From Candidatus Eiseniibacteriota bacterium (GTDB taxonomy: Bacteria; Eisenbacteria; RBG-16-71-46; CAZAMP01), in contig OZ245046.1 of the NCBI GenBank assembly GCA_965224245.1, positions 1,120,001 through 1,184,000 on the forward strand: DNA of 64,000 bases, written 5' to 3'. A program made the translations under genes and the position numbers. Position 1 is the first letter of the stretch. Each line of letters starts with the position of its first letter. Positions 6,015 to 36,940 of the stretch are shown piece by piece. The notes beneath the pieces were generated by a model. That model had not been told where the DNA came from. It made no database searches and saw nothing but the letters and a program-made list of their open reading frames with translations.

Positions 6015-6038
6015 GCCACCTGTGATGGGACGCATCAC

Positions 6039-12461: not shown

Positions 12462-12464
12462 CCC

Positions 12465-13223: not shown

Positions 13224-13225
13224 GC

Positions 13226-18330: not shown

Positions 18331-18385
18331 TTTCCGTTCTCGGTCCCGTCACGGGTCGAGGTCGCTCAATTGCCGTCCCCAAGCC

Positions 18386-18450
18386 TGAGCCCCCCTTTGG
18401 CCGAAGCGTAAGGCGGCGATCCACTGAAAACGACCTGTATGGGGGGTTCA
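18386..18450 (+). promoter_or_regulatory. structured 5' leader that sequesters the speD ribosome-binding site
   Basis: TGAGCCCCCC (18386-18395) pairs with GGGGGGTTCA (18441-18450), 10 bp with one GU; the G-run is the SD 8 nt before the TTG start. Confidence 0.55.
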
Positions 18451-18454
18451 TGAG

Positions 18455-18853: not shown

Positions 18854-18866
18854 AGGGGGTGCTGCG

Positions 18867-19100
18867 GTGGTCCCGCGTGATGACGACGACCCGTTCGTCG
18901 ACCCCAAGCGGCCGCGCCGGCGCAAGCCGGAGCCACGCGGCTCCGACGACGACTTCGATCGTGACGACGACGAGCGACCCAGGCGTCGCCGGCGGGTCGA
19001 TCAGGAAGACGACTTCGATGACGACTGGCTCGACGACGAGGATCTCGACTCGGACGGCGAGTTCGATCCGGACGAGGAGTTCGACGATGCCGAGGAGTGA
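18867..19100 (+). CDS. 77-aa highly charged Asp/Glu- and Arg-rich disordered microprotein
   Basis: AGGGGG RBS 7 nt before GTG; fills the gap between speD and the DHS gene and its 3' end carries the next gene's GAGGAG RBS. Confidence 0.65.
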   Translation: MVPRDDDDPFVDPKRPRRRKPEPRGSDDDFDRDDDERPRRRRRVDQEDDFDDDWLDDEDLDSDGEFDPDEEFDDAEE

Positions 19101-19103
19101 GCA

Positions 19104-20765: not shown

Positions 20766-20897
20766 CGAGGCACCTCCGGGTTCGAGAGAGCGCGGGATCG
20801 TGGGTCGGGCACGATCGGGCGGGGTTCATCCGGAAGACGGATCTCGCCCGTGAAACCGCACGGATAATCTCGCGACCGGGGTACGGGGGCGGGGGCG

Positions 20898-21476
20898 CTA
20901 GTGCTGCGCGAAGAGGCCGGCGAAGCCCATGAACGCCATGGACAGGATGCCCGCGATGATCAGGTTGACCGCCGTCCCCTTCATCAGCGCCGGAACGTTC
21001 GAGAGCTCGGCCTCCACCCGGATGCCGGCCATCAGGACGAGCGCCAGCGTGAACCCGGCGCCGGCGCCGAGTGCGAAGAAGATGCCCTCGACCAGATCGT
21101 ATCCGCGGTTCGTCTGGAAGAGCGCCAGCGCCAGGATCGCGCAGTTGGTGGTGATCAGCGGGAGGAAGATCCCGAGGGCACGGAAGAGGACCGGGCTCAG
21201 CCGGCGGATGGCCATCTCCACGAACTGCACCGTGCTGGCGATCACGGCGATGAACGCGATCAGGCGCAGGTACGGCGCGTGGACGAGCACGAACGAGTTC
21301 AGAGCCCACGCGCAGAGCGACGTGATCAGCATCACGAACGTGGTCGCGAGCCCCAGCCGGAGCGCGGTGTCGAGGCGGCCGGACACGCCGAAGAACGGGC
21401 ACAGTCCGAGAAAGTAAGCGAGGGTGAAGTTGTTGATCACCATCGCGCTCACGAAGATCCAGAGCCAGTCGCCCAT
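20898..21476 (-). CDS. rnfA: Rnf complex subunit A
   Basis: NNFTLAYFLGLCPFFGVS, LGIFLPLITTNCAIL, MAFMGFAG. Confidence 0.95.
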   Translation of the reverse strand: MGDWLWIFVSAMVINNFTLAYFLGLCPFFGVSGRLDTALRLGLATTFVMLITSLCAWALNSFVLVHAPYLRLIAFIAVIASTVQFVEMAIRRLSPVLFRALGIFLPLITTNCAILALALFQTNRGYDLVEGIFFALGAGAGFTLALVLMAGIRVEAELSNVPALMKGTAVNLIIAGILSMAFMGFAGLFAQH

Positions 21477-22126
21477 CACGCCGCCGTCCGTTTCCGGGCC
21501 TCGGCCGCTTCTCGCCGCCGGGCTCCCATCGCGTTGAAGGCGAGCAGGATGAGCCCCAGCATCAGGAACCCGCCCGGGGGCAGGATCATGATCACCCACG
21601 GCTCGAAGTCGGGTCCGAAGAGCGACACCCCGAAGAGGCTGCCGCTGCCCAGGATCTCGCGGACGCCTCCCAGGCACAGGAGCGCGAACGCGAATCCCAC
21701 CGCCATCCCGCTCGCGTCCGCCAGCGCGCGTCGGGGGGTGTTGCGCGACGCGAACGCCTCCTGACGGCCCAGAATCAGGCAGTTCACGACGATCAGGGGG
21801 ATGAACGCACCGAGCTGCTTGTGCACCGGCGGGGCCACCGCCAGGATCGTGAAGTCCGCGACGGTCACGAACGTGGCGATGATGACGATGTAGGTCGAGA
21901 TGCGGACCTGCTTGGGGATGTGACGGCGCAGGAGCGAGATGATGAGGCTCGACGCGACCAGCACGAACGCGGTCGCGGCCCCCATCGTCACCGCGTTGAC
22001 CGCCGAGTTCGTGACCGCCAGCATCGGGCACATGCCGAGCACCTGCACGAACACCGGGTTCTCCCGCCAGAGGCCCTTGGCGAACTCGGCGCCCAGTGAG
22101 CGCGGCGGACCGGCGATCGGCGTCAT
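21476..22126 (-). CDS. rnfE: Rnf complex subunit E
   Basis: GLWRENPVFVQVLGMCPMLAVT, FIPLIVVNCLILGR, ILPPGGF. Confidence 0.95.
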   Translation of the reverse strand: MTPIAGPPRSLGAEFAKGLWRENPVFVQVLGMCPMLAVTNSAVNAVTMGAATAFVLVASSLIISLLRRHIPKQVRISTYIVIIATFVTVADFTILAVAPPVHKQLGAFIPLIVVNCLILGRQEAFASRNTPRRALADASGMAVGFAFALLCLGGVREILGSGSLFGVSLFGPDFEPWVIMILPPGGFLMLGLILLAFNAMGARRREAAEARKRTAA

Positions 22127-22827
22127 GGCGTGCCCCCGCCGTCCGGCGCGGCCCGCGTTCCGGTGGGTGGGGCCGACTCCAGCCGAGGGCGCCACGTGTC
22201 GAGCGCGCGCTGGATGATCCCCAGCACGGCGCGCGAGGAGATCGTGGCTCCGGTGATCGCGTCGATCTCGTTCGGAGCGCTGGCGCCGCCCTTGGTCACG
22301 ACCAGCTCTCCGTCGGCGGCGAGCGCGTCGAACTGGGCCACGAACGCGGGATCGCGGTAGATCTTGTCGCCGAGCCCGGGCGTCTCCCGGCTCTCCAGAA
22401 CACGCATGCCGGTCACGCGCTTCGTCGCGGGGTCGTACCCGAAGATCAGCTCGATCGCGTCCTGGTAGCCGGGACCCTCGCCTTCGATCGCGTAGCCGAG
22501 GACGCGCCCGGACGCGTCCGTGGCGGCATACACCACCTCCACCTCGTCTCCGGCCGGGATGTCGCCGGCGTCCGCCGCGTCCCCGGTGGCGCCGGGGTCG
22601 ATCCAGGCCCCGTTCGCAAAGCGGCGGTTCTCCATCGCGGCCGCCCCGGGAACGACCTCGAACACCGAGGCGCGGAGCTCGCGCGCCCGGTTCGCCTCGA
22701 TCGTGGGCAACGTCAGCTCGTAGATGCCCGCGATGGCCACGCCCGACAGGAGCGCGGTCACCGTGAGCGTGCCCACGAGTCGCGGCGTGCCGGCCTCCTC
22801 GCGCCGGATCAGCGGGGTCGTGGTCAC
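22123..22827 (-). CDS. rnfG: Rnf complex subunit G (covalent FMN)
   Basis: N-terminal TM helix, ETPGLGDKI, DAITGATISS flavinylation motif; GAGGAG RBS before GTG. Confidence 0.92.
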   Translation of the reverse strand: MTTTPLIRREEAGTPRLVGTLTVTALLSGVAIAGIYELTLPTIEANRARELRASVFEVVPGAAAMENRRFANGAWIDPGATGDAADAGDIPAGDEVEVVYAATDASGRVLGYAIEGEGPGYQDAIELIFGYDPATKRVTGMRVLESRETPGLGDKIYRDPAFVAQFDALAADGELVVTKGGASAPNEIDAITGATISSRAVLGIIQRALDTWRPRLESAPPTGTRAAPDGGGTP

Positions 22828-23837
22828 GCTCCGCTCCTCTCGTGGCCGAACGCACGGGGCTGGTCCACGCGTTCCAGCAGCGGTGTGGCCGCGTTCATCA
22901 GCAGGATGGCGTACATGACGCCCTCGGGCATCCCGCCGAAGCGACGGATGAGGACGACCAGAAAGCCGATCCCGAGCCCGAAGACCCATGCGCCCCGGGG
23001 CTCGAGCGGTGACGTGACGGGGTCGGTGGCCATGAAGACCGCACCGAAGAGCACGCCGCCGGACAGGAGCATGAACGCCCCCGACGGATGCTGGGCCGGG
23101 GCGATCAGGTGGAGCACGGTCGAGAACACCGCGACCGACGCGAGGACGCCGAGCGGGATGCGCCAGTCGAACGCGCGGCGCAGGAGAAGCCATCCCCCCA
23201 CGAGGACCAGGATCGCGGCGCTCGTCTCGCCGAGCGAGCCCGACGTGTGTCCCCAGAAGAGATCGGTGATCGGGGTCGGGTCGTGATCGAACTTCATGCG
23301 GGACAGCGGAGTCGCGGACGTGACGGCATCCACGTCTCCCCGCATGAACGGCAGCGCGAGGTTCTGTCCCCGGAGCGCGAGGAACTCGCCGGCGCCCCCG
23401 GACGGGGACCAGGTCGTGAGCGTCGTCGGAAAAGAGGCCTGCAGGAACGCCCGGCCCACGAGCGCCGGGTTGAAGAGGTTGTGCCCGAGCCCGCCCCACA
23501 CGAGCTTCCCGAGCGCGATCGCCGCGACGCCGCCCACGAAGGCCATCCAGAGCGGGATTCCCGGCGGCAGCGTGAGCCCCAGGAGAAGACCCGTCAGCGC
23601 CGCGCTGCCGTCGCCGAGCGTGCGCCCGCGCGGTGTCGTGAACACGGCCTCGGTCGCCACCGCGCCCAGGGTGGCGGCGGCCAGCACGAGCAGGGCGCTC
23701 AGGCCGAAGTACCACGTCGCGGCCGCCACCACCGGCACGAGCGCGATGAGCACGTCGACCATGAGGCGCGGCGTCGTGATCTCGCGCTTCAGATGGGGAC
23801 CCGTGTGCAGCAGCAGACGCGGGTCGGTGCGGCTCAT
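22824..23837 (-). CDS. rnfD: Rnf complex subunit D
   Basis: GGLGHNLFNPALVGRAFL, DAVTSATPL FMN motif, GSLGETS, FMATDPVTSP. Confidence 0.95.
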   Translation of the reverse strand: MSRTDPRLLLHTGPHLKREITTPRLMVDVLIALVPVVAAATWYFGLSALLVLAAATLGAVATEAVFTTPRGRTLGDGSAALTGLLLGLTLPPGIPLWMAFVGGVAAIALGKLVWGGLGHNLFNPALVGRAFLQASFPTTLTTWSPSGGAGEFLALRGQNLALPFMRGDVDAVTSATPLSRMKFDHDPTPITDLFWGHTSGSLGETSAAILVLVGGWLLLRRAFDWRIPLGVLASVAVFSTVLHLIAPAQHPSGAFMLLSGGVLFGAVFMATDPVTSPLEPRGAWVFGLGIGFLVVLIRRFGGMPEGVMYAILLMNAATPLLERVDQPRAFGHERSGA

Positions 23838-25159
23838 GGGCGCTTCCTCTCGCGGATGACGCCCTTGGCCACGCGAATCAGATGAACGATGGGGATGTTC
23901 GACGGACACGTGTACGAGCACGAGCCGCACTCCATGCAGTCCAGCGCGAAGTACGAGTCCATCTCCTCGTATCGCCCTGCGCGCGCGAGCCGGGCGAGCC
24001 GTGAGGGGTTCAGGAAGGCCGGACACGCCTCCAGGCACCGGCCGCACCGGACGCATGCGTACTCGGTATGGCGCTCGACCTCGGCGGCCGTGAACGCCAG
24101 CACGCCGGACGTCCCCTTCAGGATCGGGACGTCGAGGCTGGCGATCGGGCGGCCCATCATCGGCCCGCCGAGGAGCACCTCGCGGGTCTCGGGGGTCAGG
24201 CCGCCGCAGTGGTCGATCAGATCGCGAACCGGGGTCCCGATCGGCACCAGGAGGTTCGCGGGACGCTGGATGCCGGGACCGGCCACGGTGACGACACGTT
24301 CGATGAGCGGGCGTCCGTGATCGAACCAGTCGGCGATGCCGGCCATCGTGCCCACGTTGTTGACGATCATGCCCACGTCGATGGGCAGCTTGCCCGCGGG
24401 CACCTCCAGGTCGAAGAGCGACTTGATCAGCATCTTCTCGGCACCCTGCGGGTACTTCGTCTCCAGCGCGACCACGTCGATCTCGGAATCACGGCCGACG
24501 GCGCGCGTCAATGCCTCGATCGCGTCGGGCTTGTTGCGTTCCACGCCGATGGTCGTGCGGTGGACGCCGAGGAAGTGCGCCGTGACGTGGATGCCGCGCA
24601 CGATTGCGTCGGCCCGTTCGACCATCAGCCGATGATCACAGGTCAGGAAGGGCTCGCACTCGCAGCCGTTCACGAGCAGGCGGTCCACACGTTTGCCCTC
24701 GGGGACCGCGTACTTCACGTGCGACGGGAACGCGGCGCCGCCGAGCCCCACGAGTCCCGCACGCTGGACCTCGGCGATGAAGGTCTCGATCGTCAGCGAG
24801 TTCAGATCGGGCGGCGGCGTGCTGCCGAGCCGCTGGGGAGCGAAGGGGTCGGTGACCAGCTCCAGCGCGGGTGCGATCGTTCCGTCCGGATGGCGAAAGC
24901 GCCCGATCGACGCGATCTCGCCCGCGGCCGGCGCATGCAGCGTTGTCGACATGAATCCGTCGGCCGTCGCCAGTGTCTGGCCGCGCTCGACGCGATCCCC
25001 GACGCTCACGATCGGCACCGACGGCTTTCCCGCGTGCTGGCCGAGGAGCAGCACGTAGCGGGGCACGAACGGCATGCGCGTGATCGCGAGGTGACCGGTC
25101 TCCTTGTGCTCGCTCGGGTGCACGCCGTGGGCGAACGTGGGGGGAAAGGAGGGGGTCAT
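23834..25159 (-). CDS. rnfC: Rnf complex subunit C (short form)
   Basis: GVHP, GLVGLGGAAFPSHVK, NGCECEPFLTCD, YPQGAEK, GGPMMG, CVRCGRCLEACP, CMECGSCSYTCP. Confidence 0.95.
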   Translation of the reverse strand: MTPSFPPTFAHGVHPSEHKETGHLAITRMPFVPRYVLLLGQHAGKPSVPIVSVGDRVERGQTLATADGFMSTTLHAPAAGEIASIGRFRHPDGTIAPALELVTDPFAPQRLGSTPPPDLNSLTIETFIAEVQRAGLVGLGGAAFPSHVKYAVPEGKRVDRLLVNGCECEPFLTCDHRLMVERADAIVRGIHVTAHFLGVHRTTIGVERNKPDAIEALTRAVGRDSEIDVVALETKYPQGAEKMLIKSLFDLEVPAGKLPIDVGMIVNNVGTMAGIADWFDHGRPLIERVVTVAGPGIQRPANLLVPIGTPVRDLIDHCGGLTPETREVLLGGPMMGRPIASLDVPILKGTSGVLAFTAAEVERHTEYACVRCGRCLEACPAFLNPSRLARLARAGRYEEMDSYFALDCMECGSCSYTCPSNIPIVHLIRVAKGVIRERKRP

Positions 25160-28100
25160 GCCGGCGTCTCCTCGTCGGAGGTGTCGGCCGGCGGGTCGGC
25201 CGCGCGCTCGATCGCCGGGTCGGACGGCACGTGCGCCATCGCGCTCGCCATGAGGTTGGCGGCCAGCCGGTCGGCCAGCTCGAGCTCGACGTCGGTCCGG
25301 AGCGCGGCCAGCTTCGCCTCGTACTCGGTGCGCAGCGTGTCGAGCGCCTGCGCGTGACGCTCCGCATCGGCCCGGCGGACCTCGTCGGCCGTGCGATCGG
25401 CCACGGCGGTGATCAGGCCGGCTCGCTCGGTGAGGATCGCGCCGGCGCGATCGGGATCGGGGTTGCCGTCGAGAGACAGGCGCGTCCCGTCGGCCCCGGG
25501 TCGAAACACGTACAGCGGTACGTCGCCCCGGGACACGGCGCCGCGGGCCTCGTCGAGGACGGTGTCGATCGTGACGTCGCCGTCCGGTACCGGGGCCAGC
25601 ACGCGAACGACGCCGGATCCGCCGCCGGCGAGCACCGAGCGGATGCCGGCGACGAGGTGATCGGCATGCGCGATCGTGGACTGCACGACGGTCGCGCCAC
25701 CCAGCGCCAGCAGCGCCAGGCCCGGGTCGTGTCCGGTGTCGGGTGCCTGACGACCGAGGAGCAGGACCAGCACCGGCGTGTCGGTGCGCACGAGCGCGAG
25801 GAGATCGCCCCACGTGCCGGGGGACATCTCGTCCTCGTCGGCGAGGAGGACGAGCGGCGCCAGGGCACGGCGATCCTCGTCGGACAGCTTCTCCAGCGGG
25901 TCCTCGGGACCGGCGCTCGGGCGTGCGGTGGCCAGCGTCTCGGCCCGGTGCACGGTCCGCGCGTCGTCGAGGGCCGCGCGAGCACGCGCCGACGCCAGCC
26001 CTGCCACGAGCGGGATGCTCGTGCCCGTCATGTCGACGACCACCGGCTGGGGAAACGGGTTGATCGGGAAGCGCGTCATCGAGGCGAAGCGAGGGCTGGA
26101 TGCCACCACCAGGCCGGCCCGCGCGCGGCCCAGTCCGGTGGGAGCGGTCTCGAGTCGCCACCGAAGGTCGGCCAGGTCCCGTGCGGTGGTGACCAGCCGC
26201 TGGATCACACCGGCGTCGAGCCTCCCCGCGCTGGAGGCGCCTTCGATGCTCGCGGCCAGCTTGGAGATCGTCAGCTCGGCGTCGGCGAACGCCGCCACGC
26301 CGTCCTCGAGCGCGGCCAGGTCGTCGGTGGGCAACGCGTCGGCGAGCGTTCCCCGGAGTCGTGTGCCGAGCGCGTCCTCCATCGAGCGGATGCGGCTCAC
26401 GAGATCGCGAACGGCGGGCTGGACCTGCGACTCGATCGCGCCCAGTACGAGCCGCAGCGCGATCCGCGCCGAGGCGGACGCCTCGTCGGTCGACCCCGGA
26501 CCGAACGCGCGCAGGCAGTGTCGGGTCAGGAACGTCCCCGCGGCCTCACCGACGTCGTCGCGCTCGCGCGCGGCCGCGATGGTCGCGCCGCTCGTGTCGG
26601 GCAGCCACTCCCATCGGGACCAGGCGCGCGCGAGGGCATCCTGCGCGGACGGCCCGGCCTCGGGGCCCGGAGCGACCAGCGCATCCTCGGGACACTCCGC
26701 GATGCACAGCCCGCAGCCCGTACACGCGCCGGGGTCGATCGCGAGCGTGAGGAGCTCTCCGGCTCCGGGCGCACGCGCGTCCGGGTCATCAAAGAACGCC
26801 CGCGTCCGCGCGATCGGCAGGTCTCCGACCTCGGCCAGAAGCGCCTCGAACGCCCCGACCAGCGCATCCCGCCGCTCGGCGCTCGGGGCCATCTTCTCCA
26901 CGAGCCACCCGAACGCGCCGGCCAGCGCTGGACCGAACGTGCCGGCGGCCTCGCGTCCGGATCTGTTCGTGTCGGACGTCTCGGCCGGCTGCCCGGTCGT
27001 GCCGCCCGCGTCGATCGCGCGATGGGTCCGATCGGCGAGCTTGCCGAGAACCGGCTGCAGAACGCTGACGTCGTGGCCGCGCGCGGCCAGCCGCGCGATC
27101 GCCGCGTCGAGGATCCGTCGGACACCGAGGGCGACCGGACCGATGGCGCCCTCGGGACAGGCGATCCAGCAGATGCCGCACCCGGTACACGCGGTCGGGA
27201 CGAACCGGGGCACGTCCTCCGGCGGCGTGCCACCGGCCACCAGCGCACCCGAGAGTGCCGGGATCGTGCCCGCCGCCAGATGGGGATCGGGCGACAGCGT
27301 CACGCCGCGCTGCTCGGCGATCGGCAGACCCACCTCGCCCCAGAAGCGGGGCAGGCTGTCGTGGTAATCGTCGGTCCGCCGCATCGCCGCGAGGGAGTAC
27401 GGCCGCTCCGATCGGACCGCCGTTCGTGGCGGGACCGTCACCGGCCCGGATCCGGTCGCGTCGGGCGTCCCGACGATCGCGCGGGCGGCCGCATCGGGAT
27501 GATCGCCGAGAACGCGCTCGACCAGAATCCGCCGCTTCGGGTCGGTGGACGCGTCGACGCCGAACGACACGCCCAGGTAGAGAGGTCCATCGGGCAGGCT
27601 GTCGGCCCGACACAGCGCGGCCACGTCCTCGAGGCGCACGGGACGTCCCCCGAGCCCGACGTAGACCGACCGAATGGTGGGGATCGGTCTGCGTCCGCGG
27701 GAGAGCGTTCGCGATGGAGCGCTCTCGAGTGCGCGCACGAAGGCGTCGAGGATCTCGCGGGTGAGCGGTCCCGGTCCCGTGCGGGTCGGCGCCGCCTGCT
27801 CCAGCACGCAGACCTCGTTCGCGTCGCGAAGCGCGTCGGCCAGGTCGGGAAGCGGCGAGAGGCTCTTCAGCGCCAGCACGTGGGCCCGGTTCTCGCGTGC
27901 CGCCGCCACGACGGTGTCGGTGGCGTCACCGAGCACGATGAGCGTCCGGCGCGCACGGCGAACGCGCTCGGTCCGGACGAGGCTCGGCGCCCATCCCATC
28001 GCCCCGGTCAGGTGATCCCGCGCGCGCTCGACGAGCGACGCCAGTGGCGCGAGCTGGAAGAGATCCCGTCCGACCGCGCCCAGTGCCCACGTCTCGGCGT

Positions 28101-28776
28101 CGTAGGTGGGTCCGACGAGCACCGGTCGGTCGGGATCGAACCATCTCGGAACCCGCCGTCGCGTCGCACCGAGGGTCATCCTCTGCGCCGGCGTGGGCGC
28201 ACCGACGGCGTCGGCGGGTGTCCCGGCCAGCTCGCGCACCAGCGCCGGCGTGGGCACGCGAACGTCCGCCGTCCGGTGGGCGGTCGTCTCGTCCATGGCC
28301 ACCACGACCGGGACGAGCGCCGACTCGGCCACGATCAGTCCCAGGAGTGCGAGATCGACCGCGTCCTGAGGGTCGGCCGCGGAGAACACGATCGCGCCCG
28401 CGTCCGCGGCCAGATGCGCCGCCTCGTGTCCGGTACCCGTGGCGGCTCCGTGCGCGGCGAGCGCCCGGTTCTCGAGCACGATCAGAAGCGGCAGCGACCG
28501 ACCCGCGGCCACGCGCAGGAGATCGATCGAGGCCGCGAGCTCGCCGGCTCCGACCCCGACCGCGACCCGGTCGCCGGCGAGGGCTCGACCGATCGCGCGC
28601 GCGAACGTCGACTCGCCGGTCGCGGCGGTGTGCGCACCGTCACGCTCGACGGCGACGTCGGCGCGATCCAGGAACGTGTCCACCGCGCCCCGGCCGTCGA
28701 GCGACTCCTCGCTCCACTGGGCCCGGGGGCGCGACCGGGTCTCGGGCGTGTCGCGGCGCCCACGTCCGAAGCTCAT
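25156..28776 (-). CDS. degenerate pyruvate:ferredoxin oxidoreductase-like protein retaining two 4Fe-4S motifs (putative pseudoenzyme)
   Basis: PFOR domain-I-like segment (NRALAAHG...GHE...FSAADPQDAVDLAL...VVVAMD); CTGCGICWIACP and CTGCGLCIAECP; no YPITP, CxGC or GDG; 4-bp overlaps with rnfB and rnfC. Confidence 0.75.
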   Translation of the reverse strand: MSFGRGRRDTPETRSRPRAQWSEESLDGRGAVDTFLDRADVAVERDGAHTAATGESTFARAIGRALAGDRVAVGVGAGELAASIDLLRVAAGRSLPLLIVLENRALAAHGAATGTGHEAAHLAADAGAIVFSAADPQDAVDLALLGLIVAESALVPVVVAMDETTAHRTADVRVPTPALVRELAGTPADAVGAPTPAQRMTLGATRRRVPRWFDPDRPVLVGPTYDAETWALGAVGRDLFQLAPLASLVERARDHLTGAMGWAPSLVRTERVRRARRTLIVLGDATDTVVAAARENRAHVLALKSLSPLPDLADALRDANEVCVLEQAAPTRTGPGPLTREILDAFVRALESAPSRTLSRGRRPIPTIRSVYVGLGGRPVRLEDVAALCRADSLPDGPLYLGVSFGVDASTDPKRRILVERVLGDHPDAAARAIVGTPDATGSGPVTVPPRTAVRSERPYSLAAMRRTDDYHDSLPRFWGEVGLPIAEQRGVTLSPDPHLAAGTIPALSGALVAGGTPPEDVPRFVPTACTGCGICWIACPEGAIGPVALGVRRILDAAIARLAARGHDVSVLQPVLGKLADRTHRAIDAGGTTGQPAETSDTNRSGREAAGTFGPALAGAFGWLVEKMAPSAERRDALVGAFEALLAEVGDLPIARTRAFFDDPDARAPGAGELLTLAIDPGACTGCGLCIAECPEDALVAPGPEAGPSAQDALARAWSRWEWLPDTSGATIAAARERDDVGEAAGTFLTRHCLRAFGPGSTDEASASARIALRLVLGAIESQVQPAVRDLVSRIRSMEDALGTRLRGTLADALPTDDLAALEDGVAAFADAELTISKLAASIEGASSAGRLDAGVIQRLVTTARDLADLRWRLETAPTGLGRARAGLVVASSPRFASMTRFPINPFPQPVVVDMTGTSIPLVAGLASARARAALDDARTVHRAETLATARPSAGPEDPLEKLSDEDRRALAPLVLLADEDEMSPGTWGDLLALVRTDTPVLVLLLGRQAPDTGHDPGLALLALGGATVVQSTIAHADHLVAGIRSVLAGGGSGVVRVLAPVPDGDVTIDTVLDEARGAVSRGDVPLYVFRPGADGTRLSLDGNPDPDRAGAILTERAGLITAVADRTADEVRRADAERHAQALDTLRTEYEAKLAALRTDVELELADRLAANLMASAMAHVPSDPAIERAADPPADTSDEETPA

Positions 28777-29621
28777 GCGTCACCTCGTCTGTGCAAAGGG
28801 ACCGGCTCGTCGTCGAACTGATCGCCGGGCACCCAGCGGATCGCGCCGGTCGGACAGCGAAACGTGGCCGCGGGGCCGATGACCTCGGACCGGACGTAGT
28901 CCACGATCGGCAGACCGTCTCGCATGACGATGGCGCCCGACGGCGCATCCTGGGCACACCGCCCGCACGCGTCGCACGCCACGCGGCACAGGGCGACCGC
29001 GTCCTCGCCGGCGAGCGGGATGCTGCATTGCACGAGCACGGGCTGATCGACCGGAAGCAGCTCGAACAGATCGCGCGGACACTCGACGACGCAGTCGTTG
29101 CACGCCGTGCAGCGCTCGACGCTGACCACCGGCAGGCCGTTGGCGTTCATCCGGATCGCGTCGAAGGTGCACACGCGCTCGCAGTCCCCGAGCCCGAGAC
29201 ATCCCCAGGCGCAGCCCTTGCCGCCACCGGAGACGAGCGACGCGGCCCGGCACGACTCGTACCCCTCGTACGCGGCGATCTGGGTGGCCTGGGCGCGTCC
29301 GCCGGCGCAGTGGAGCCGGGCGACCCGCTTCACCTGGGTGCCGGCCTCGACCCCGAGAAACTCGGCGATCGCCGCGACGGCGTCCGGGCTGGAGACGGTG
29401 CACGAGCTGGGCTGAACGGCACCGGCCACCAGGCGCGTCGCGAACGCCTGACAGCCCGGCTCGCCGCACGCGCCGCAGTTCGTGCCCGGCAGCATCTGCT
29501 CGACCGCCTCGAGGCGCGGGTCCTCCTCGACCTTCAGGTAGCGGTAGGCGACGGCCAGAATGGTGCCGAACACGAGGCCCAGCCCCGTCATGATCGTCGC
29601 CGCGATCAGCACGCTGCCCAT
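28773..29621 (-). CDS. rnfB: Rnf complex subunit B
   Basis: N-terminal TM, LPGTNCGACGEPGC, CLGLGDCERVC, CTACNDCVVECP. Confidence 0.93.
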   Translation of the reverse strand: MGSVLIAATIMTGLGLVFGTILAVAYRYLKVEEDPRLEAVEQMLPGTNCGACGEPGCQAFATRLVAGAVQPSSCTVSSPDAVAAIAEFLGVEAGTQVKRVARLHCAGGRAQATQIAAYEGYESCRAASLVSGGGKGCAWGCLGLGDCERVCTFDAIRMNANGLPVVSVERCTACNDCVVECPRDLFELLPVDQPVLVQCSIPLAGEDAVALCRVACDACGRCAQDAPSGAIVMRDGLPIVDYVRSEVIGPAATFRCPTGAIRWVPGDQFDDEPVPLHRRGDA

Positions 29622-29629
29622 CGTCCGCC

Positions 29630-32110
29630 TCACTGATTGAACGGGGCCGCCCGCGCGACGAGCTCCTCGAGCCCCGGCTCGTCGGGATTCACCGGCTGAC
29701 CCGGGTGAATGCACCGCGCCGGGCACTTCTCGGCGGCCTGCACGAGCTGCGAGTACGTTCCCGCGTGGATGTCGCCGATGTGCGCCTGCTTGTTCTGGTC
29801 GTACACGAAGAGCTTCGGATTGATCGCCGTGCAATCGTTGCAGCTCGTGCAGAGGGGCGTGTTGATCCACGCCTCCTCGAAGACGAGCGCGTCGTCGTCC
29901 TCGTCCGCCTCGCTCTCGCCGGCAGCGGATGCGTCGGCCGGGGTCGCTCCGGCATCGACCGCGTCCGGAGCAGCCGGCGGCGCGCTGTCGGGCGCCGGCG
30001 GCGCGGCGGCGCCGGGAGACCCGACAGGCGGCGGAGCCGTAGTGGACGCCGCAGTGATGGACCCGGTCGCGAGCCCGCCGGGGTCGAGGCCGAGCAGCAT
30101 GCGGGCCAGGCCCTGCATGGCCAGGCCCGCGGCGTCACGGCGCACGCGGTCGAGATCCGAGGCGTGCTCGCGCTCGAGACGGGCGCGGTCCGCGGCGGCG
30201 ACCGCCTCGGCCTCGGTCCGGGCGCGAGCGGCCGCGGACTCCGCGTACGCGTTGTGTATCCCGCCGAACTCCTGCAGCGTCCGCCAGAAGTCGTGCCGGG
30301 CGCGTGCCTCCAGCGCCAGCTCGCGCGTGACCGCCAGACGCACCGTGCGCCCCTCGGCGTCGGCGGCGATCACGAACGGAACGCCGCTCGGGGCCTCGTC
30401 GGGCGCCTCGTTCAGATGCTCGGCCAGGGGGACCAGCGCGTCGTCGGGAACGGCGTCGGGGATGACGGCGAACGCTCCGGCGAAGCGGGACTCCAGGAGG
30501 GCGTAGTCGGCGAACGTGAACGCGAGCGAGAGGTCCTCGTGGTCCGGCATCGAGTAGGTGGGCCAGTCCATCTCGGGCTCGGGATTGCCGCCCAGGTCGA
30601 ACCGCTCGGCCCACGTCTCGCCTCCGGTCGGATCGTAGCGGAAGACCGGATGCGCACGCCCCTCCAATGCGCTGGCCGCGTGCAGCCAGACGCCAAGCGG
30701 CGGCGTGTCGAGCCCCGTGCCGGGGTCGACGACGTGGACGGCCGGCGCGGCGCTCCGGATGGCGTCGCGGAAGCCCTCGCACATCGATACCGGGCTGGCG
30801 ATCGAGCACTGATGGACGAAGACGTCCCGGTGGGCGATGGCCATGTATCCGAGGTCGAGCCGGGACTCGGTACCCGCGTCGTCACCGGGATGCGCGGCCG
30901 GTGCGACCGTCGTCATCACGTGGATCGGTCGCGACGATCGCAAGGCTCGCGAGTAGCTGGCCAGCCGATCCCCGGCCAGACGCCAGGCGGTCTCCAGCGC
31001 GACCACCGGTGGCACGAGGCGGCGCTCGTCGGCGGAGAAACGGCGCCACCCGAAGGCATCGAGCCACGCATCGTGCTGCTCGGGGCGATAGCGGTGCGCG
31101 ACCTCCAGCTCGGCGATCCGGGCCGCCACGAACACCTCGGCGACACGCGCCGCCCATCGATCGAACTCGGTCTCGGCCGCGGTCAGAGGCTCGTCGGACC
31201 GCACCCATTCCACACCGAGCTCGGCGGGGAGCCCTTCGGGCTCGCCGCTCTCGTACACGATCACGAGCGAGGACCTGCCGGACCGGGAGAGGTGCGTCTC
31301 GAGCGTGGAGAGCGCGAGCTCGACCCGCGTGCGCTCGACGGGGTCCATCCGCTGGCTACCGCGCCACTGCCCGAGGGTCTCGGAGAACGCGGCGGGGTTC
31401 ACGTACTGTGCAGCACCCCCGATCGCGCCGGCAATCGCATCGCCCTCGCGATGCTCGGCGTCCTTGGCTCGTTCCACCTCGACGATGGACGTGAGCTTGA
31501 CCACCAGCTCGCGCGCGCGCGCGTCGAATCTCGCCCACCGCACCCGCTGCTCGTGCGCGGCGACGATCACGAACGCGCGCAACGCGGCATCGGCGTCCAG
31601 GTCCAGGAACCACCCCGACTCCGGCCACGCGGCCCGCAGCGTGCGATAGTCGGCGTCCAGCGAGGAGTCGTGCGGCTCGGTGAGCCCCAGCTCGGAGCGC
31701 AGCGCCGTGCCGGCTTCGTCGAAGAGCGTGGAGGCGTCGACGAGTCCGGCGCTCCGGCTCGCGCGCCTCCGGATGGCGCGTTCGAGTCGGAGGCGGTTGT
31801 CGTGGAGGACGCGCGCGTTCTCGGCGGAGAGGCCCGCGCGGTCGAGCCCGTCGTCGATCAGGGCCGCTACCGGGACCGCATCGACGTCGGGACCATCGCC
31901 GTCGGCCAGGAAGATCGGAAAGTCGTGTCGCACCGCGTCCGGCTGGCGCATCCCGCTCAAGAGGGCCGGATACGTTCCATCGGCCGGAGCGGTCAGGACG
32001 TTGTCCCGTTCCCCGCGCAGATGAAACCGGCGGAGCGTCCGGACGAGGTCGTCGGGCACGCCGGGAGCGTTGCTGGGGCTGCGGTCGGACGTCGTGTTCT
32101 CGGTCGGCAT
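29630..32110 (-). CDS. large protein with degenerate PFOR TPP-domain-like region, coiled coil, Pro/Ala linker and C-terminal ferredoxin
   Basis: ALEGRAHPVFRYDP, GNPEPEMDWP, FTFADYALLESRF resemble the PFOR C-terminus; C-terminal CTSCNDC...AEKCPARCIHPG; start 32110 (GGAG RBS) or 32125. Confidence 0.75.
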   Translation of the reverse strand: MPTENTTSDRSPSNAPGVPDDLVRTLRRFHLRGERDNVLTAPADGTYPALLSGMRQPDAVRHDFPIFLADGDGPDVDAVPVAALIDDGLDRAGLSAENARVLHDNRLRLERAIRRRASRSAGLVDASTLFDEAGTALRSELGLTEPHDSSLDADYRTLRAAWPESGWFLDLDADAALRAFVIVAAHEQRVRWARFDARARELVVKLTSIVEVERAKDAEHREGDAIAGAIGGAAQYVNPAAFSETLGQWRGSQRMDPVERTRVELALSTLETHLSRSGRSSLVIVYESGEPEGLPAELGVEWVRSDEPLTAAETEFDRWAARVAEVFVAARIAELEVAHRYRPEQHDAWLDAFGWRRFSADERRLVPPVVALETAWRLAGDRLASYSRALRSSRPIHVMTTVAPAAHPGDDAGTESRLDLGYMAIAHRDVFVHQCSIASPVSMCEGFRDAIRSAAPAVHVVDPGTGLDTPPLGVWLHAASALEGRAHPVFRYDPTGGETWAERFDLGGNPEPEMDWPTYSMPDHEDLSLAFTFADYALLESRFAGAFAVIPDAVPDDALVPLAEHLNEAPDEAPSGVPFVIAADAEGRTVRLAVTRELALEARARHDFWRTLQEFGGIHNAYAESAAARARTEAEAVAAADRARLEREHASDLDRVRRDAAGLAMQGLARMLLGLDPGGLATGSITAASTTAPPPVGSPGAAAPPAPDSAPPAAPDAVDAGATPADASAAGESEADEDDDALVFEEAWINTPLCTSCNDCTAINPKLFVYDQNKQAHIGDIHAGTYSQLVQAAEKCPARCIHPGQPVNPDEPGLEELVARAAPFNQ

Positions 32111-32147
32111 CGTCGTGTTCTCCACGCGGTCGTGTTGCGGCTCGCGC

Positions 32148-33101
32148 CTACACGGCGAAGCGCCCGAGCTCCTCGTGCAGCGCCGCCACCTTCTCCTTCA
32201 CCGGCATCTCGAGCCCCATCGTCGTGAACGACTCGTAGCGCGGCCGGTCCGGATCGCGGTAGAACAGCCCGATGGGTACCACGTCGGTGCGATCGGCGAG
32301 AGCGCGCGCGCCGGCCATGTCACGCGGATCGTGTTCGGTCTGCGTGGGAAGCGTCTTCTGGATCACCGGATCGAGCTGCACGCCGTCGGCGTGATTCAAC
32401 ACGAGCAGCCGCGACGGATCCCGCTGGAGCTCGTCGAAGATCTGGGGCGTGTACGTCGGACAGCGCTGGAAGATCCGGACGAAGCTGAGCCCCCGATGCG
32501 CGTGCGCGAGCTTCAGCGTGGCCTGAAGGTGGGCGGGGTTCCAGTCCACCGTCTGCGCGACGAACGACACGTTGGTGAAGCCGAGCGTCGACTGCGTCGG
32601 ATTCAACGGCGGTAGCGGCGCACCCGACGGATGCGTGTTGCTCTTCCATCCCAGCGGCGACGTGGGCGACGTCTGGTTCTTGGTGAGGCCGTAGATCGCG
32701 TTGTCGAACAGCATCACCACGATGTCCATGTTGTACCGGATGGCGTGGACCCAGTGTCCGGCGCCGATCGAGCAGCAGTCGCCGTCGCCGGTCGCCACCC
32801 AGACGTCGAGATCGGGGCGCCGGGCCTTGATGCCACACGCGACGGGAAGTGGCCGTCCGTGCAGCCCGTGGAAGCCGTAGGTCTTCATGTAGTGCGGGAA
32901 GCGACTCGAGCAGCCGATGCCCGAGACCGCCACCGTCTTCTCGGGTGTGAGCTGCTCGTCGCGACAGATCTTCTGAACCGCGGTCAGCACCGCGAGGTCG
33001 CCGCAGCCCGGACACCACCGGGCCGTGCCGCCCTCGTAGTCCTCCATCGTGAAGTAGCGGGGCGATACGTCTACTTCCCAATCGTCTTTCAGGCCGAACA
33101 C
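32148..33101 (-). CDS. korB: 2-oxoacid:ferredoxin oxidoreductase beta subunit (TPP-binding)
   Basis: WCPGCGD, SGIGCSSR, HGLHGR, TGDGDC, FDNAIYGLTKNQTSPT; AAGGAG RBS before GTG 33101; substrate not determinable. Confidence 0.9.
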   Translation of the reverse strand: MFGLKDDWEVDVSPRYFTMEDYEGGTARWCPGCGDLAVLTAVQKICRDEQLTPEKTVAVSGIGCSSRFPHYMKTYGFHGLHGRPLPVACGIKARRPDLDVWVATGDGDCCSIGAGHWVHAIRYNMDIVVMLFDNAIYGLTKNQTSPTSPLGWKSNTHPSGAPLPPLNPTQSTLGFTNVSFVAQTVDWNPAHLQATLKLAHAHRGLSFVRIFQRCPTYTPQIFDELQRDPSRLLVLNHADGVQLDPVIQKTLPTQTEHDPRDMAGARALADRTDVVPIGLFYRDPDRPRYESFTTMGLEMPVKEKVAALHEELGRFAV

Positions 33102-34981
33102 GCGACTTCTCCTTTGCGCGAGCCGAGACGACGTGCGATCTCGTCGTAGATCTGACCGGGACGCAGCGGCTGACCGTGTACGTTCGACCACGAGTCGATG
33201 TCCACGAGCGTGCGGTTCCTGAGGAGCTTTGCGAGCTGTGCGTGCCGGCGCGCTTCGGGCGTCATGTGCGGGGCGTCCGGCGCGTCACTGTAGTTGATCT
33301 CCACCGTCAGCACCTGCTTGAAGCGTGAGAACATCTTGCCGAGCCCCTCGGGGAGCGGCGACACGAAGCGCAGGTGCGTGCTCGAGACGCGGTAGCCATC
33401 GGCCCGCGCCCGGTCGATCGCCTCGTCGATCGCGCCCAGCGTCGAGCCCCAGCCCACGACGAGGAGATCTCCCTCGGGGTCGCCGTGGATCTCGGGCAGG
33501 GTCAGGGTCCGGCGAAGCGCGGCGAGCTTCCGGCTCCGCATGTCGCAGCCGGTCTGGTTGGACTCGGGGTCGTAGGCCACCTTGCTCTGTCGCGTGTGGG
33601 CGAGTCCGGTCAACACGTATTCGCCACCGGCCTGTCCCGGGATCGGACGGGGGGACAGTCCGGTCTGGGGATCCCAGTCGTACGGCGGCGTGCCGGGCGT
33701 CCACGGCGACTGGTCGATCGGCGGGGCCATCCACTCCGATTTGAGCTCGGGACGCGGAAACGGTGCCACGCCGGTGGCGAGGTTCGCGTCGGTGAGGACC
33801 ACGACCGGTCCCCGGAACTCCTCGGCCAGGCGTCGGGCCAGGATCGCGAAGTGGAAGCACTCCTCGATCGTGGCCGCCGCGATCACGACCTTCGGCGCGT
33901 CACCGGGCTCACCGAAGATCGACGGCAAGAGCTCGCCCTGCTCGACCTTCGTGGGGAGACCGGTGGACGGCCCGCCCCGCTGGACGACGACGATCACGAG
34001 CGGGATCTCGGCCATGACCGCGAGCCCGACGAACTCCGTCTTCAGGGCCAGTCCCGGTCCCGAGGTGATCGTGCACGCGGTCTTGCCCGCGTAGGACGCG
34101 CCGATCGCGAAGCCGATCGCGGCGATCTCGTCCTCGGCCTGATGCACGACGCCGCCGACCTTGTGGAAGACGCCGGCCAGGTAGTGCGACGCCGACGTGG
34201 CGGGCGTGATCGGGTACATCGAGACCAGCTCGATCCCGGCCGCCATGATGCCGGCCGCCACGGCCTGGTTCCCGTTCATGACGATCATCTCGCGCTCGTG
34301 CGGCCACGGCGGGATCTCGTACGAGAAGGGGAGGTTCTCCCGCGCGAACTGAACGCCGTGCTCCAGGAGCTTCTCGTTTCGCGCGATGACCTCCTCGCCC
34401 TTGCGCGCGAAGAGGAAACGGATCTCCTCCTTGGCCTTCTGCACGTCCCGCTGGTAGAGCTGACAGAGCAGGCCCAGCACGAACATGTTCTTGCCGAGTC
34501 GAGGGTTCGTCGTGATCTCCTCGCAAGCCTTCTCCATCTCGAGCTCGTACACCACGAGCCCCTGCGCGCGGAACTCCTCGACCGCGGTCGTGTACTGGCT
34601 CCGGATCGACTCCTGGACGTCGTCCTTCCACTTGCTCTCGAGCAGAATGATCGTGCCGGGTCGGTAGGATCGCTGCTCGATCCGGCCGTACAACACCTGG
34701 TCGTTGAATGCGACCACGAGATCGGCCTCGTCGCCCATGTTGGTCACTTCGTCCGAGCCGATGCGGATCCGGATCCCACTGGCGCCGGCGCGCGAGCGCG
34801 AGGGCGGCTTGATCTCGGCCGGGATGATCTCCACGGTCCACACCCCGTTGCCCATCTTCGCGCACACGGCACCGAAGGACTGACCGGCCTTCTGCGCGCC
34901 CTCACCCGAGTCGCTGACGATCTCGACGATGTGTCCGTCCACCCGCTGGGGCACGCCCTCGCCGCTCATGTTCTCTCCCAT
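33089..34981 (-). CDS. korA: 2-oxoacid:ferredoxin oxidoreductase alpha subunit (gamma-alpha fusion)
   Basis: SGEGAQ, MNGNQA, YPITPAT, QAEDEIAA, TSGPG, QRGGPSTGLPT; start 34981 or 34969. Confidence 0.92.
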   Translation of the reverse strand: MGENMSGEGVPQRVDGHIVEIVSDSGEGAQKAGQSFGAVCAKMGNGVWTVEIIPAEIKPPSRSRAGASGIRIRIGSDEVTNMGDEADLVVAFNDQVLYGRIEQRSYRPGTIILLESKWKDDVQESIRSQYTTAVEEFRAQGLVVYELEMEKACEEITTNPRLGKNMFVLGLLCQLYQRDVQKAKEEIRFLFARKGEEVIARNEKLLEHGVQFARENLPFSYEIPPWPHEREMIVMNGNQAVAAGIMAAGIELVSMYPITPATSASHYLAGVFHKVGGVVHQAEDEIAAIGFAIGASYAGKTACTITSGPGLALKTEFVGLAVMAEIPLVIVVVQRGGPSTGLPTKVEQGELLPSIFGEPGDAPKVVIAAATIEECFHFAILARRLAEEFRGPVVVLTDANLATGVAPFPRPELKSEWMAPPIDQSPWTPGTPPYDWDPQTGLSPRPIPGQAGGEYVLTGLAHTRQSKVAYDPESNQTGCDMRSRKLAALRRTLTLPEIHGDPEGDLLVVGWGSTLGAIDEAIDRARADGYRVSSTHLRFVSPLPEGLGKMFSRFKQVLTVEINYSDAPDAPHMTPEARRHAQLAKLLRNRTLVDIDSWSNVHGQPLRPGQIYDEIARRLGSRKGEVACSA

Positions 34982-34982
34982 G

Positions 34983-35417
34983 TCAGGCGCCTCGCCCGAT
35001 GTCGGTCATGACCGAGTCGATGAACAGGTCGTTCTCGCGGCCCTCGTGCTCACGCAGTTCGGTCGCGAGCTCGGCGGCCCGCTGCTGGGCCTCGGGCCAG
35101 ATGTCCCGCCGTGCCGTGTCCACCAGCTCGGCCACGAGGTCGCGCAGGCGGGTGTGCTCGTTCAGCACCGCGTCCACGTGGGGGATGTGGTGCGGCGCGA
35201 TGTCCCGCACCGCCGAGTGGAGGCCGTCCTCGGCTTCCTCCGATGCAAAATGTTGTTCCAGAACGGTTTGAAGCTTCTCGGCGACCGGCAAGAGCGTCTC
35301 GCAGTCCGCGGCCTGCTCCATCGTCTCGAGGAGCCCGGCCAGCATGCGGTGCTCGGCGTCGATCCGGTCGCGGGCCTCGCTCTCGGGAGCGCCCGAAGGC
35401 TCATCGGCGTTGGACAC
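34983..35417 (-). CDS. hemerythrin (HHE) domain protein
   Basis: EH...HFASEE...EH...HEGRE di-iron ligand pattern; GGAGG RBS before GTG. Confidence 0.85.
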   Translation of the reverse strand: MSNADEPSGAPESEARDRIDAEHRMLAGLLETMEQAADCETLLPVAEKLQTVLEQHFASEEAEDGLHSAVRDIAPHHIPHVDAVLNEHTRLRDLVAELVDTARRDIWPEAQQRAAELATELREHEGRENDLFIDSVMTDIGRGA

Positions 35418-35603
35418 GGGGTACCTCCCAGTTCGCTAAGTCGTAGCGGGACGGGCCTTTCGAGCCGTTCGAAAATACACGGTGTGACGCTATCAGGTGC
35501 TCCACCCGACGGGTATACGTTCCATCCGAAGCGGCCCTTCGGGTTTGCGAAGGCGCCCATCCGACGCGCTGGCCCGAAGTTGCGAGCACGGCGCCGAGCC
35601 GAT

Positions 35604-35619
35604 TGATGCCGATGCATCA
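35604..35619. promoter_or_regulatory. palindrome TGATGC-CGAT-GCATCA upstream of the hemerythrin-kor-rnf operon
   Basis: read directly; same core as the sites at 6042 and 53916. Confidence 0.5.
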
Positions 35620-35701
35620 TTGCCTCGACTGCGCCCTTTTCGACACCGTCATCGTATCCAAATCCGGGACCCGATCCACGATCGAACGAGGGAGTCCGTC
35701 C

Positions 35702-36940
35702 GTGACCGCGACCTCCTTCCCGCCGGCGGAAGGCCGCGCCTGGATCGCCGGCTGCGCGGCCATCCGGCGGGGCATCCTGTTCGTGTACGCGGCGATGCTC
35801 GTGGTGGGCATCTCGGGCGTCACCGATGGCACGTATCCGCTGCCGCTGCTCACCGAGGCGCGCACGGCCGAGCTCGCCGCCGCACTCGACGCCGAGGGCC
35901 AGGCCCCGCTCGACTACGTCGTCCGAACGTTCGCCGATCACGATGCCGTGTTTCTGGGGGAGGTACACTGCATCGCCCACGTGGGACAGTTCGTTCAGGA
36001 CCTCCTGCCGCGGCTCCACGAAGCCGGCGTGAACGTGCTGGCGACGGAGCTCGCCCGGCGGGAGGACCAGCCGCTCGTGGACGAGCTTCTCGCCTCGCCG
36101 GTGTACGACGAGTCGCTCGCCCGGGAGATCGTGTTCCGCCAGTATCTGCACCACGGGCTTCGCGAGTACGTCGACGTGTTTCGCGCGGCCTGGGAGCTGA
36201 ACGCATCGCTCGCGCCCTCGGAGCCGCGCTTCCGCATCGTGGGCGTGAACGACTCCCCCGACTGGTCGATCGTGCGAACCCTCGCCGACCGCGACGACGC
36301 AGCCGTCGAGAGGGCCGTCTGGCGTGGACAGAGCGAGCGCGACTGGGCCGACGTCGTCCTGCGCGAGGTCGAGGCCGGTGAGAAGGTCCTCGTCTACTGC
36401 GGCATTCACCACGCGTTCACGGCCTACGTGATGCCCGTCGCGGACGCACGCACCGGCGAGTTCCGACCGCCGTTCCCCCGGCGCATGGGCAACTACGTGT
36501 ACGCCGAGATCGGCGAGCGCGCCTACACGATCGCGCTCCATGCGCCGTGGCTGGACCGTACGGGTCGCTCGCTGAGCGAGTACGCGGCCGGTGGCGTGAT
36601 CGACGCGCTCATGAGCACGCTCGGGCCGGGCGCGTATCCGATCGGCTTCGACACGCGCGGTACCCTCTTCGGCGACATCGGGGTGCCCGAGAGCTGCCTG
36701 TACGCGCAAGGGCGCGACGCGCTGACACTCGGTGACTGGTGCGACGGCTACGTCTTCCATCGCCCGCTACACCATTTCGAGGGGATGACGGTGATCCCCG
36801 ACTTCGTGACCGCGGCCAACGTCGAGCGTGCGCGCCGGATCACCTGGGACCCGCGTTTTCGCGACGCGACCCCCGCCGAGTTCCAGTGGTCCATCCTGGG
36901 CGAGGCCAGCGTCGAGTTCCGGCTCCGCGCGTTCCGCTGA
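35702..36940 (+). CDS. exported protein, ChaN/erythromycin-esterase-like superfamily
   Basis: GAGGGAG RBS before GTG; N-terminal hydrophobic stretch; VFLGEVH, VLATE, VLVYCGIHHA. Confidence 0.6.
   Translation: MTATSFPPAEGRAWIAGCAAIRRGILFVYAAMLVVGISGVTDGTYPLPLLTEARTAELAAALDAEGQAPLDYVVRTFADHDAVFLGEVHCIAHVGQFVQDLLPRLHEAGVNVLATELARREDQPLVDELLASPVYDESLAREIVFRQYLHHGLREYVDVFRAAWELNASLAPSEPRFRIVGVNDSPDWSIVRTLADRDDAAVERAVWRGQSERDWADVVLREVEAGEKVLVYCGIHHAFTAYVMPVADARTGEFRPPFPRRMGNYVYAEIGERAYTIALHAPWLDRTGRSLSEYAAGGVIDALMSTLGPGAYPIGFDTRGTLFGDIGVPESCLYAQGRDALTLGDWCDGYVFHRPLHHFEGMTVIPDFVTAANVERARRITWDPRFRDATPAEFQWSILGEASVEFRLRAFR

Follow-up and report, generated by a model that had tools for sequence, protein, structure and literature searches.

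Pyruvate:ferredoxin oxidoreductases (PFORs) and other 2-oxoacid:ferredoxin oxidoreductases (OFORs) of solved structure use free ferredoxin. The canonical Rnf complex, as in A. woodii (9ERI) and C. tetanomorphum (7ZC6), has six subunits, and rnfBCDGEA is given as a known variant of the gene order in PMC3534657. Here we analyze a 64,000-nucleotide stretch of a Candidatus Eiseniibacteriota genome (GCA_965224245.1, contig OZ245046.1, positions 1,120,001 to 1,184,000; hereafter the window), in which an eleven-gene operon combines the six rnf genes with a two-subunit OFOR, KorAB, and with two large PFOR-derived proteins, P831 (family Y) and P1206 (family X). Compared with canonical Rnf, with which it shares the six subunits, the operon places the 1206-aa gene between rnfB and rnfC, tethers a ferredoxin to one of its own proteins, and has its own RnfB subtype. 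On balance, we favor the reading that KorAB is a built-in module of the Rnf pump encoded here, with catalytically dead PFOR paralogues as adaptors and a leashed ferredoxin that shuttles electrons between KorAB and the pump.

An earlier note on this DNA, made from its letters alone, mentioned similar gene orders in other genomes and knew of none that had been characterised. The order does recur, but it is already in print, in the 'rTCA cycle cluster 2' of the E. laminata symbiont (Rubin-Blum et al. 2019), which comprises sucD, sucC, por, rnfB, por-like, korB, korA, nuoF, frd, ferredoxin and gltA, all transcribed (PMC6315080 Table S1). Read as korA, korB, por-like, rnfB, por, sucC, sucD, that cluster has the order of locus L045 in our survey and of the core of the window operon, and the accessible text of PMC6315080 takes por to be a working PFOR fed by Rnf and speaks of neither a scaffold nor a tether. 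Other reports describe PFOR gene(s) between rnfB2 and rnfC2 in the rnf2 operon of the symbiont of Solemya velum (Dmytrenko et al. 2014, PMC4287430), multiple PFOR copies with high expression in Kentron (PMC6593406), and, in Endoriftia, the genes korA(3), korB(3), 'PFOR-like ferredoxin' and RS16080, which fall together at low sulfide or low oxygen (adjacent tags RS16060, RS16065, RS16070 and RS16080; Mitchell et al. 2024, PMC11636981), with the label 'possible PFOR' and, in the sections available, no mechanism offered. Our literature search, which covered mostly open-access text and excluded figures, returned no paper that treats these proteins as dead or that reports the tether or a complex.

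All eleven genes lie on the minus strand, in the order and with the tight junctions that had been read from the letters. The leading gene, for a hemerythrin/HHE-domain protein of 144 aa (34983..35417), is 1 nt from korA (33089..34981), and korB (32148..33101), with a GTG start preceded by an AGGAG site, overlaps korA by 13 nt. The gene for P831 (29630..32125) follows across the widest junction, 22 nt if it starts at GTG and 37 nt with the ATG at 32110 of the public gene call P0001, and is 8 nt from rnfB (28773..29621). Overlaps of 4 nt join rnfB to the gene for P1206 (25156..28776), the latter to rnfC (23834..25159), and then rnfC to rnfD (22824..23837), rnfD to rnfG (22123..22827) and rnfG to rnfE (21476..22126), while rnfE and rnfA (20898..21476) overlap by 1 nt. 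Positions 20800-32787 are identical, letter for letter, to one assembled contig of sequencing run X1, a match that is not independent because X1 probably is the source sample. A promoter and terminator scan of the operon gave no signal above chance.

Each of the six Rnf subunits, A, B, C, D, G and E, has the right family as its best match, and PDB matches include the Rnf structures 9ERI and 7ZC6. RnfB (282 aa, with an N-terminal membrane anchor and Fe-S domains; TIGR01944), RnfC (TIGR01945, 506.7 bits), RnfD (TIGR01946) and RnfE (TIGR01948) score above the NCBIfam cut-offs, with RnfA 0.4 bits short (TIGR01943, 228.9 bits vs. 229.3) and RnfG 2 bits short (TIGR01947, 100 bits vs. 102; also PF04205). 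The rnfC gene of the operon is the only copy in the genome.

KorA, the alpha(gamma) subunit (TIGR03710, 517 bits, cut-off 482.75), carries YPITP at 256, QAEDE at 281 and RGGPSTG at 334, and KorB, the 317-aa beta subunit, has the ligand residues C30, C33, C64 and C214 together with GDGD at 105 and N134. The pair thus shows the pattern of two-subunit OFORs, with YPITP and Glu in alpha and with a GDG/Asn thiamine pyrophosphate (TPP) motif and four proximal-cluster Cys in beta, although its TIGR02177 score of 234 is below the cut-off of 261.9. Judged by these residues, KorA is catalytically complete, and KorAB has every residue of a working 2-oxoacid:ferredoxin oxidoreductase. The nearest PDB structures are the Magnetococcus 2-oxoglutarate:ferredoxin oxidoreductase (OGOR) 6n2n_A for KorA (E 4.8e-85) and the broad-range Sulfolobus OFOR 5b46 for KorB.

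The two large proteins are indeed PFOR-derived and devoid of catalytic residues, as the earlier note had held, and alignments, folds and a residue table agree on this. P1206 (PF01855 and two Fer4 matches) comprises domains I, II, V and VI and a C-terminal helix, with domain III deleted in P1206 itself, and its AlphaFold2 (AF2) model (predicted local distance difference test, pLDDT, 87.7) matches PFOR in Foldseek at E 6e-27. It has CxxCxxCxxxC motifs at 530-540 and 685-695 and no tethered ferredoxin, and its YPITP, catalytic Glu, TPP/Mg motif, Asn and four proximal-cluster Cys are all replaced or deleted; P1206 is partly trimmed in the profile mapping described below, and its own losses are taken from alignment A3 and a Cys list. 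P831, as seen by AF2, Foldseek, hhalign and the residue table, consists of domain V-insert helices, the domain VI fold, a C-terminal extension, a linker and a C-terminal ferredoxin, without PFOR domains I-III, the domain V clusters, the TPP motif or the proximal-cluster residues. Its AF2 model (pLDDT 89.8) matches PFOR 6cin at E 2.9e-7, and the linker, 71 aa long and 45% Ala+Pro, is disordered (pLDDT below 50 at 682-745). The ferredoxin domain (residues 758-807, PF13370, 30.5 bits vs. cut-off 24.5) superposes on ferredoxin I 1fxr with a TM-score of 0.84 and a root-mean-square deviation of 1.2, and its C759, C762, C765 and C801 form the CxxCxxC plus distal CP pattern of a single-[4Fe-4S] ferredoxin. 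The absence of a small ferredoxin gene, which the note had pointed out, therefore holds at the locus but not in the sense of a missing carrier, since P831 itself ends in the PF13370 domain; another part of the genome encodes a free ferredoxin of the FdxA type. Relatives of P831 number 1981 at the 50%-identity level, 867 of them with E <=1e-30.

Related loci hold in the rnfB-rnfC slot a long PFOR of 1630-1700 aa that has YPITP, the catalytic Glu, two domain-V motifs, CxGC, NxTGC, GGDGA, YSNTGGQ and the last cluster Cys; it also has inserted helices, with a long C-terminal helix and an Ala/Pro linker ahead of its terminal ferredoxin. The X and Y families align to this long PFOR and to each other (hhalign probability 100, 653 columns). 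We mapped residues on the long-PFOR profile for 32 long forms, 205 X and 157 Y proteins, leaving out P0102 and P0103 (long-like) and P0009 (X-like). Catalytic sites are intact in 32/32 long PFORs (a count that is circular for YPITP, by which the long forms were selected), whereas the catalytic Glu is kept in 3/205 X and 1/157 Y, and the four proximal-cluster Cys in 0, 0, 1 and 2 of the 205 X. Each of the eight domain-V Cys is kept in 192-203 of 205 X but in 0/157 Y, while the terminal ferredoxin is found in 0/205 X and its Cys in 148/157 Y, so that the dead paralogues have split the ancestor's electron carriers between them. By these alignments, X and Y are catalytically dead descendants of one particular enzyme, the intact long PFOR found in the same slot in other genomes. 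In a family tree (FastTree, 53 rows) long PFORs are sister to X+Y with support 0.955, a grouping that long branches could cause, and we therefore make no claim about the order of events. No fusion of X or Y to Rnf or Kor subunits was seen among 252 proteins, within the length limits of the searches.

Several variants within these families were also seen. Y proteins of 1260-1565 aa (P0164, P0170, P0188, P0195, P0203 and others) keep degenerate N-terminal PFOR domains and are apparent intermediates in the shortening of Y. 'GGDGA' matches in X were considered as a sign of activity and rejected, the site being the former CxGC and not the TPP motif. In a planctomycete-type X (L056, L058, L066; P0016, P0025, P0046, P0070, P0073 and others) the inner Cys of both Fe-S motifs are lost and the outer Cys mostly kept, and the latter could pair as disulfides.

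The division of carriers bears on how electrons might travel. The earlier note had envisaged both pseudoenzymes as scaffold and Fe-S wire, which in its strict form would be a rigid chain of clusters from KorB through P831 and P1206 to RnfB in which the clusters of X are obligatory. The domain-V clusters are the exit path of the ancestral enzyme, which counts in favor of such a chain, as does the retention of all eight domain-V Cys in ~94% of X homologues. Against it, both motifs are missing in 11/94 X homologues, including the complete operons L056, L058 and L066 (~6% are without the inner Cys of both motifs), Y has no domain-V clusters at all, and the sole cluster of Y sits on a disordered linker. 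The X proteins without clusters are easier to reconcile with a swinging carrier than with a fixed wire, and we regard an obligatory wire through both proteins as unlikely, giving the rigid chain little credence.

A different proposal gives X and Y the task of regulating KorAB or shielding it from oxygen instead of linking it to the pump, and has the hemerythrin buffer oxygen or iron. The X family has replaced the CxGC proximal-cluster loop with a conserved E-x-G-S (Glu in 189/205, Ser in 198/205; less so in P1206 itself, residues 764-770), which is possibly structural or a new ligand site, and the latter would suit this proposal. Hosts include aerobes and microaerophiles, the present genome has two haem-copper oxidases, and a hemerythrin gene heads the operon here. 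The protein is above the cut-off for PF01814 (34.9 bits vs. 25.3), though bacteriohemerythrin models score far below theirs and the PDB matches include no hemerythrin. However, the gene is not in most loci: BLAST matched it in 5/80 loci of the survey below (divergent copies may escape) and it was seen in 7/12 own-phylum loci or their extensions, making the hemerythrin an accessory, lineage-limited component. The proposal also leaves the conserved tethered ferredoxin and the place inside the rnf genes unexplained, and we consider it the least probable of the alternatives, with very little weight.

To survey related loci we used RnfB as the anchor, because a locus scan with P1206 alone gave 45 pattern matches with 0 confirmed relatives and the sequences in the X alignment differed too much for it to serve as a query. 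The scan of GTDB genomes yielded at least 593 stretches, of which we describe the best 80, ranked by likeness to the window RnfB (L042 is a duplicate of L018). A gene of the X/Y/long-PFOR family is present in 77/80. The window arrangement, korAB-Y+ferredoxin-rnfB-X (class II), was found in 28 loci from several phyla, and therefore does not reflect chance. A further 26 loci have rnfB-long PFOR-rnfC or long PFOR-rnfCDGEAB (class I), 18 have korAB-short Y-rnfB-long PFOR (class Ib), and one, joined by L022 from the own-phylum set, has korAB-Y-long PFOR-rnfB-X (class III); four loci are partial, and in three, one of them cut by a contig end, no family gene was seen. The gene after korB is of the Y family in 43/43 loci with korB. 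Exactly one tethered ferredoxin, on the long PFOR or on Y, was found in 54/54 loci complete to rnfC, a regularity that favors a mobile carrier over the rigid chain; where Y, long PFOR and X occur together, in L022 and L065, Y is without ferredoxin. Some single genomes hold both an intact long-PFOR operon and a KorAB/dead-paralogue operon (L025/L024 in G050; L067/L102).

Within the phylum, RnfB was matched in 88/201 genomes, of which 13 score >=457 bits on a subtype profile (built with 10 of those 13) and the other 75 <=274; by profile scores and tree, this RnfB classifies as a distinct subtype, the tree being a quick version in which three cut loci (L093, L109 and similar) are mislabelled. In one genome with RnfB of the ordinary type (G046), korAB is followed at a contig end by pieces of a Y gene with ferredoxin (L029:1-5532), possibly a decaying remnant. 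Co-conservation of the large genes with rnf and kor is thus seen both in the anchored loci and in the own-phylum survey. Purifying selection is seen in relatives as well: of 9 distinct close pairs, 6 allowed an estimate of dN/dS, which is 0.12-0.52 for X, 0.09-0.47 for Y and 0.02-0.16 for KorB. The idea that X and Y are decaying pseudogenes was rejected on these ratios and on the intact frames.

Next, we examined how KorAB might attach. The N-terminal arm of KorB (residues 1-20) is conserved in long-Y operons (F2/G3/D7/W8) and not in ordinary KorB, and we therefore picked KorB and P831 for complex modelling; the arm has no aligned counterpart in the beta chains of solved OFORs. The multimer prediction of KorB with P831(20-680) scored 0.72 (runs 0.71, 0.72 and 0.72), compared with 0.00 for the best of three controls, and the runs share >=96% of contacts, with partner pLDDT >=86. 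The mark used is reached by 116/157 solved and 2/215 mismatched pairs, a calibration that is only rough with the alignments used here. In the model, KorB 1-20 contacts P831 residues 55-68, 105-119, 146-152, 443-444, 481-488 and 515-524, a site with conservation 0.57 against an average of 0.46 (39/10000 random residue sets are as high). The arm is present in 35/35 long-Y loci and 0/17 short-Y loci, and short Y is without the N-terminal part of the arm site. No counterpart of the interface was found among solved relatives of both folds. These results support the prediction that KorB binds P831 through its N-terminal arm. A short Y (~335 aa, without Pfam match; L077, L078, L101 and other Gemmatimonadota) goes with a KorB N-terminus that contains C-x-L-L, which suggests a second docking code.

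The mechanism we envisage starts from KorAB as the sole catalyst, most likely acting on 2-oxoglutarate, with the KorB arm docked into P831. The P831 ferredoxin, on its ~70-residue linker, would swing between the KorB cluster and RnfB, possibly via the two clusters of P1206, and P1206, in the place of the ancestral long PFOR beside RnfB and RnfC, would hold P831-KorAB at the pump. The gene order suggests that P831 binds P1206 and that P1206 binds Rnf; swinging transfer, substrate and direction are likewise our interpretation. The net reaction would be 2-oxoacid + CoA + NAD+ <-> acyl-CoA + CO2 + NADH, coupled to Na+ or H+ movement, with free ferredoxin unneeded. As a guess tilted only slightly to one side, the operon would run in the oxidative, ion-exporting direction in this genome, and reductive carboxylation is plausible in sulfur-oxidising symbionts.

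We take 2-oxoglutarate as the probable substrate because fumarate-reductase-like/NuoF-like and sucCD-like genes flank the block in some loci, in gammaproteobacteria. L045 (302-3211 and 15485-17620) and L047 (3050-4297 and 15573-18034) have fumarate-reductase-like/NuoF-like genes upstream of korA and genes downstream of X that are sucC/sucD-like by their N-termini. Fumarate-reductase-like genes also lie upstream of korA in L061, L063, L070 and L079 (Pfam check made for L061 and L070). Fumarate-reductase-like Fe-S and FAD proteins and a NuoF-like flavoprotein were seen there in five loci, and a NADH-dependent fumarate reductase joined to the kor block is possible in L045, L047, L061, L063, L070 and L079.

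Several observations weigh against the built-in module. The surveyed loci are kin, ranked by RnfB likeness, and their counts measure conservation rather than events independent of one another; the dN/dS values come from relatives and not from the copy in the window; the KorB arm pattern was defined after the sequences were seen; and P1206, with domain III deleted, is more eroded than most X. The genome also encodes a free ferredoxin, another korAB, a PFOR of the standard type and sucA, and the operon is therefore not indispensable. Moreover, X is not followed by rnfC in L045 and L046, sucCD lies between X and rnfC in L047, the subtype rnfB stands alone in L052 and L054, L119 has korAB-Y-ferredoxin with rnfB 4.8 kb off and no X nearby, and rnfB is the only rnf gene of the E. 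laminata cluster in PMC6315080 Table S1. From the six loci of our survey it follows that the link to the membrane subunits can loosen.

These split and loosened loci are what would be expected if KorAB, Y and X formed a soluble complex with its own ferredoxin and only transient contact with Rnf, the operon reflecting co-regulation and history. KorB-Y binding has model support, and AF2 models of X and Y show no clear membrane anchor. On the other hand, X or the long PFOR stands directly before rnfC in 52/54 complete loci, even with rnfB at the operon end, the exceptions being L047, with its intervening sucCD, and L051, where X is split in two. Of the genomes with the RnfB subtype, 12/13 have a strong P831 match, compared with 0/75 of those with ordinary RnfB (10/13 having built the profile), and a dead protein of 1200-1500 aa is hard to justify without a docking role. 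We judge a soluble complex improbable, although it deserves more weight than either the rigid chain or a shielding role, and prefer the built-in module.

More broadly, it is nearly an even proposition that the operon belongs to a modular supercomplex spread over at least 10 phyla, in which a hub of PFOR-fold proteins (intact long PFOR, dead X, dead Y) sits on Rnf, different 2-oxoacid oxidoreductases plug in by short peptide arms, and one leashed ferredoxin moves back and forth between the oxidoreductases and the pump. If true, the assembly would parallel the 2-oxoacid dehydrogenase complexes as an ion-pumping, ferredoxin-independent equivalent and, when reversed, would be a carboxylase driven by proton-motive force and protected from oxygen and from the free ferredoxin pool.

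Elsewhere in the genome, four HGD-D family genes lie with activator-like ATPases (G000:C1:1713683-1728735), a cluster that resembles a benzoyl-CoA reductase (Bzd) and that is a possible sink for reduced ferredoxin; nitrogenase was not found in the genome with PF00148. Within the window, plus-strand genes at 11688-14406 encode, by Pfam, a multihaem cytochrome c, a four-cluster Fe-S protein and a third product without a match, likely a quinol-linked redox module. Positions 14538-20186 hold an ATP-grasp ligase and an SLC12-like transporter (minus strand) and an S-adenosylmethionine decarboxylase and a deoxyhypusine-synthase-like gene (plus strand), which are polyamine-type functions. Three long open reading frames (1198, 629 and 1003 aa) at 2652-11164 on the minus strand have no Pfam match in a scan that covered minus-strand frames; plus-strand frames of like length overlap them. 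Divergent from the operon, at 35603-36940 on the plus strand, is a ChaN/Tiki-superfamily protein of 445 aa with a weak, sub-cut-off HopBA1 match.

Returning to the published counterparts, 'PFOR' proteins of the E. laminata, Riftia, Ridgeia and Endoriftia symbionts (WP_240991974.1, RLJ19057.1, USF87612.1 and others) are without YPITP, the catalytic Glu, the TPP motif and the proximal-cluster Cys. Gene order, rather than locus tags, suggests that the E. laminata dead proteins are the genes tabulated in PMC6315080, and WP_006475424.1, absent from the 15/18 cluster members listed, would be X by its position. The misleading PFOR name stands on hundreds of database entries (433 proteins at E <=1e-100 among 8000 scored, 120 listed), and in metabolic models one 'pyruvate synthase' gene of tubeworm symbionts and Kentron is without an active site. 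Among cultured carriers, Endothiovibrio diazotrophicus has an X-type protein and Sedimenticola strains have the intact long form. The operon is conserved widely, in many phyla, is expressed in relatives and carries wrong annotations. If the proposed mechanism is true, it would couple 2-oxoacid chemistry to an ion pump in a new way and account for how aerobes and microaerophiles keep low-potential carboxylase chemistry.

Set beside known systems, the operon is a variant of Rnf and OFOR and not a new kind of chemistry. X and Y share the fold of homodimeric PFOR (M. thermoacetica 6CIN, D. africanus 1B0P) but have no active site, and bear helical insertions and a C-terminal extension. KorAB matches two-subunit OGOR/OFOR (M. 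marinus OGOR 6N2N), with an extra docking arm on the window KorB. An analogy is the lipoyl swinging arm of 2-oxoacid dehydrogenase complexes, which likewise presents a small carrier on an Ala/Pro-rich linker in a 2-oxoacid:NAD+ reaction; there is no homology between the two, and in P831 the carrier is an Fe-S domain and the final step would be an ion pump.

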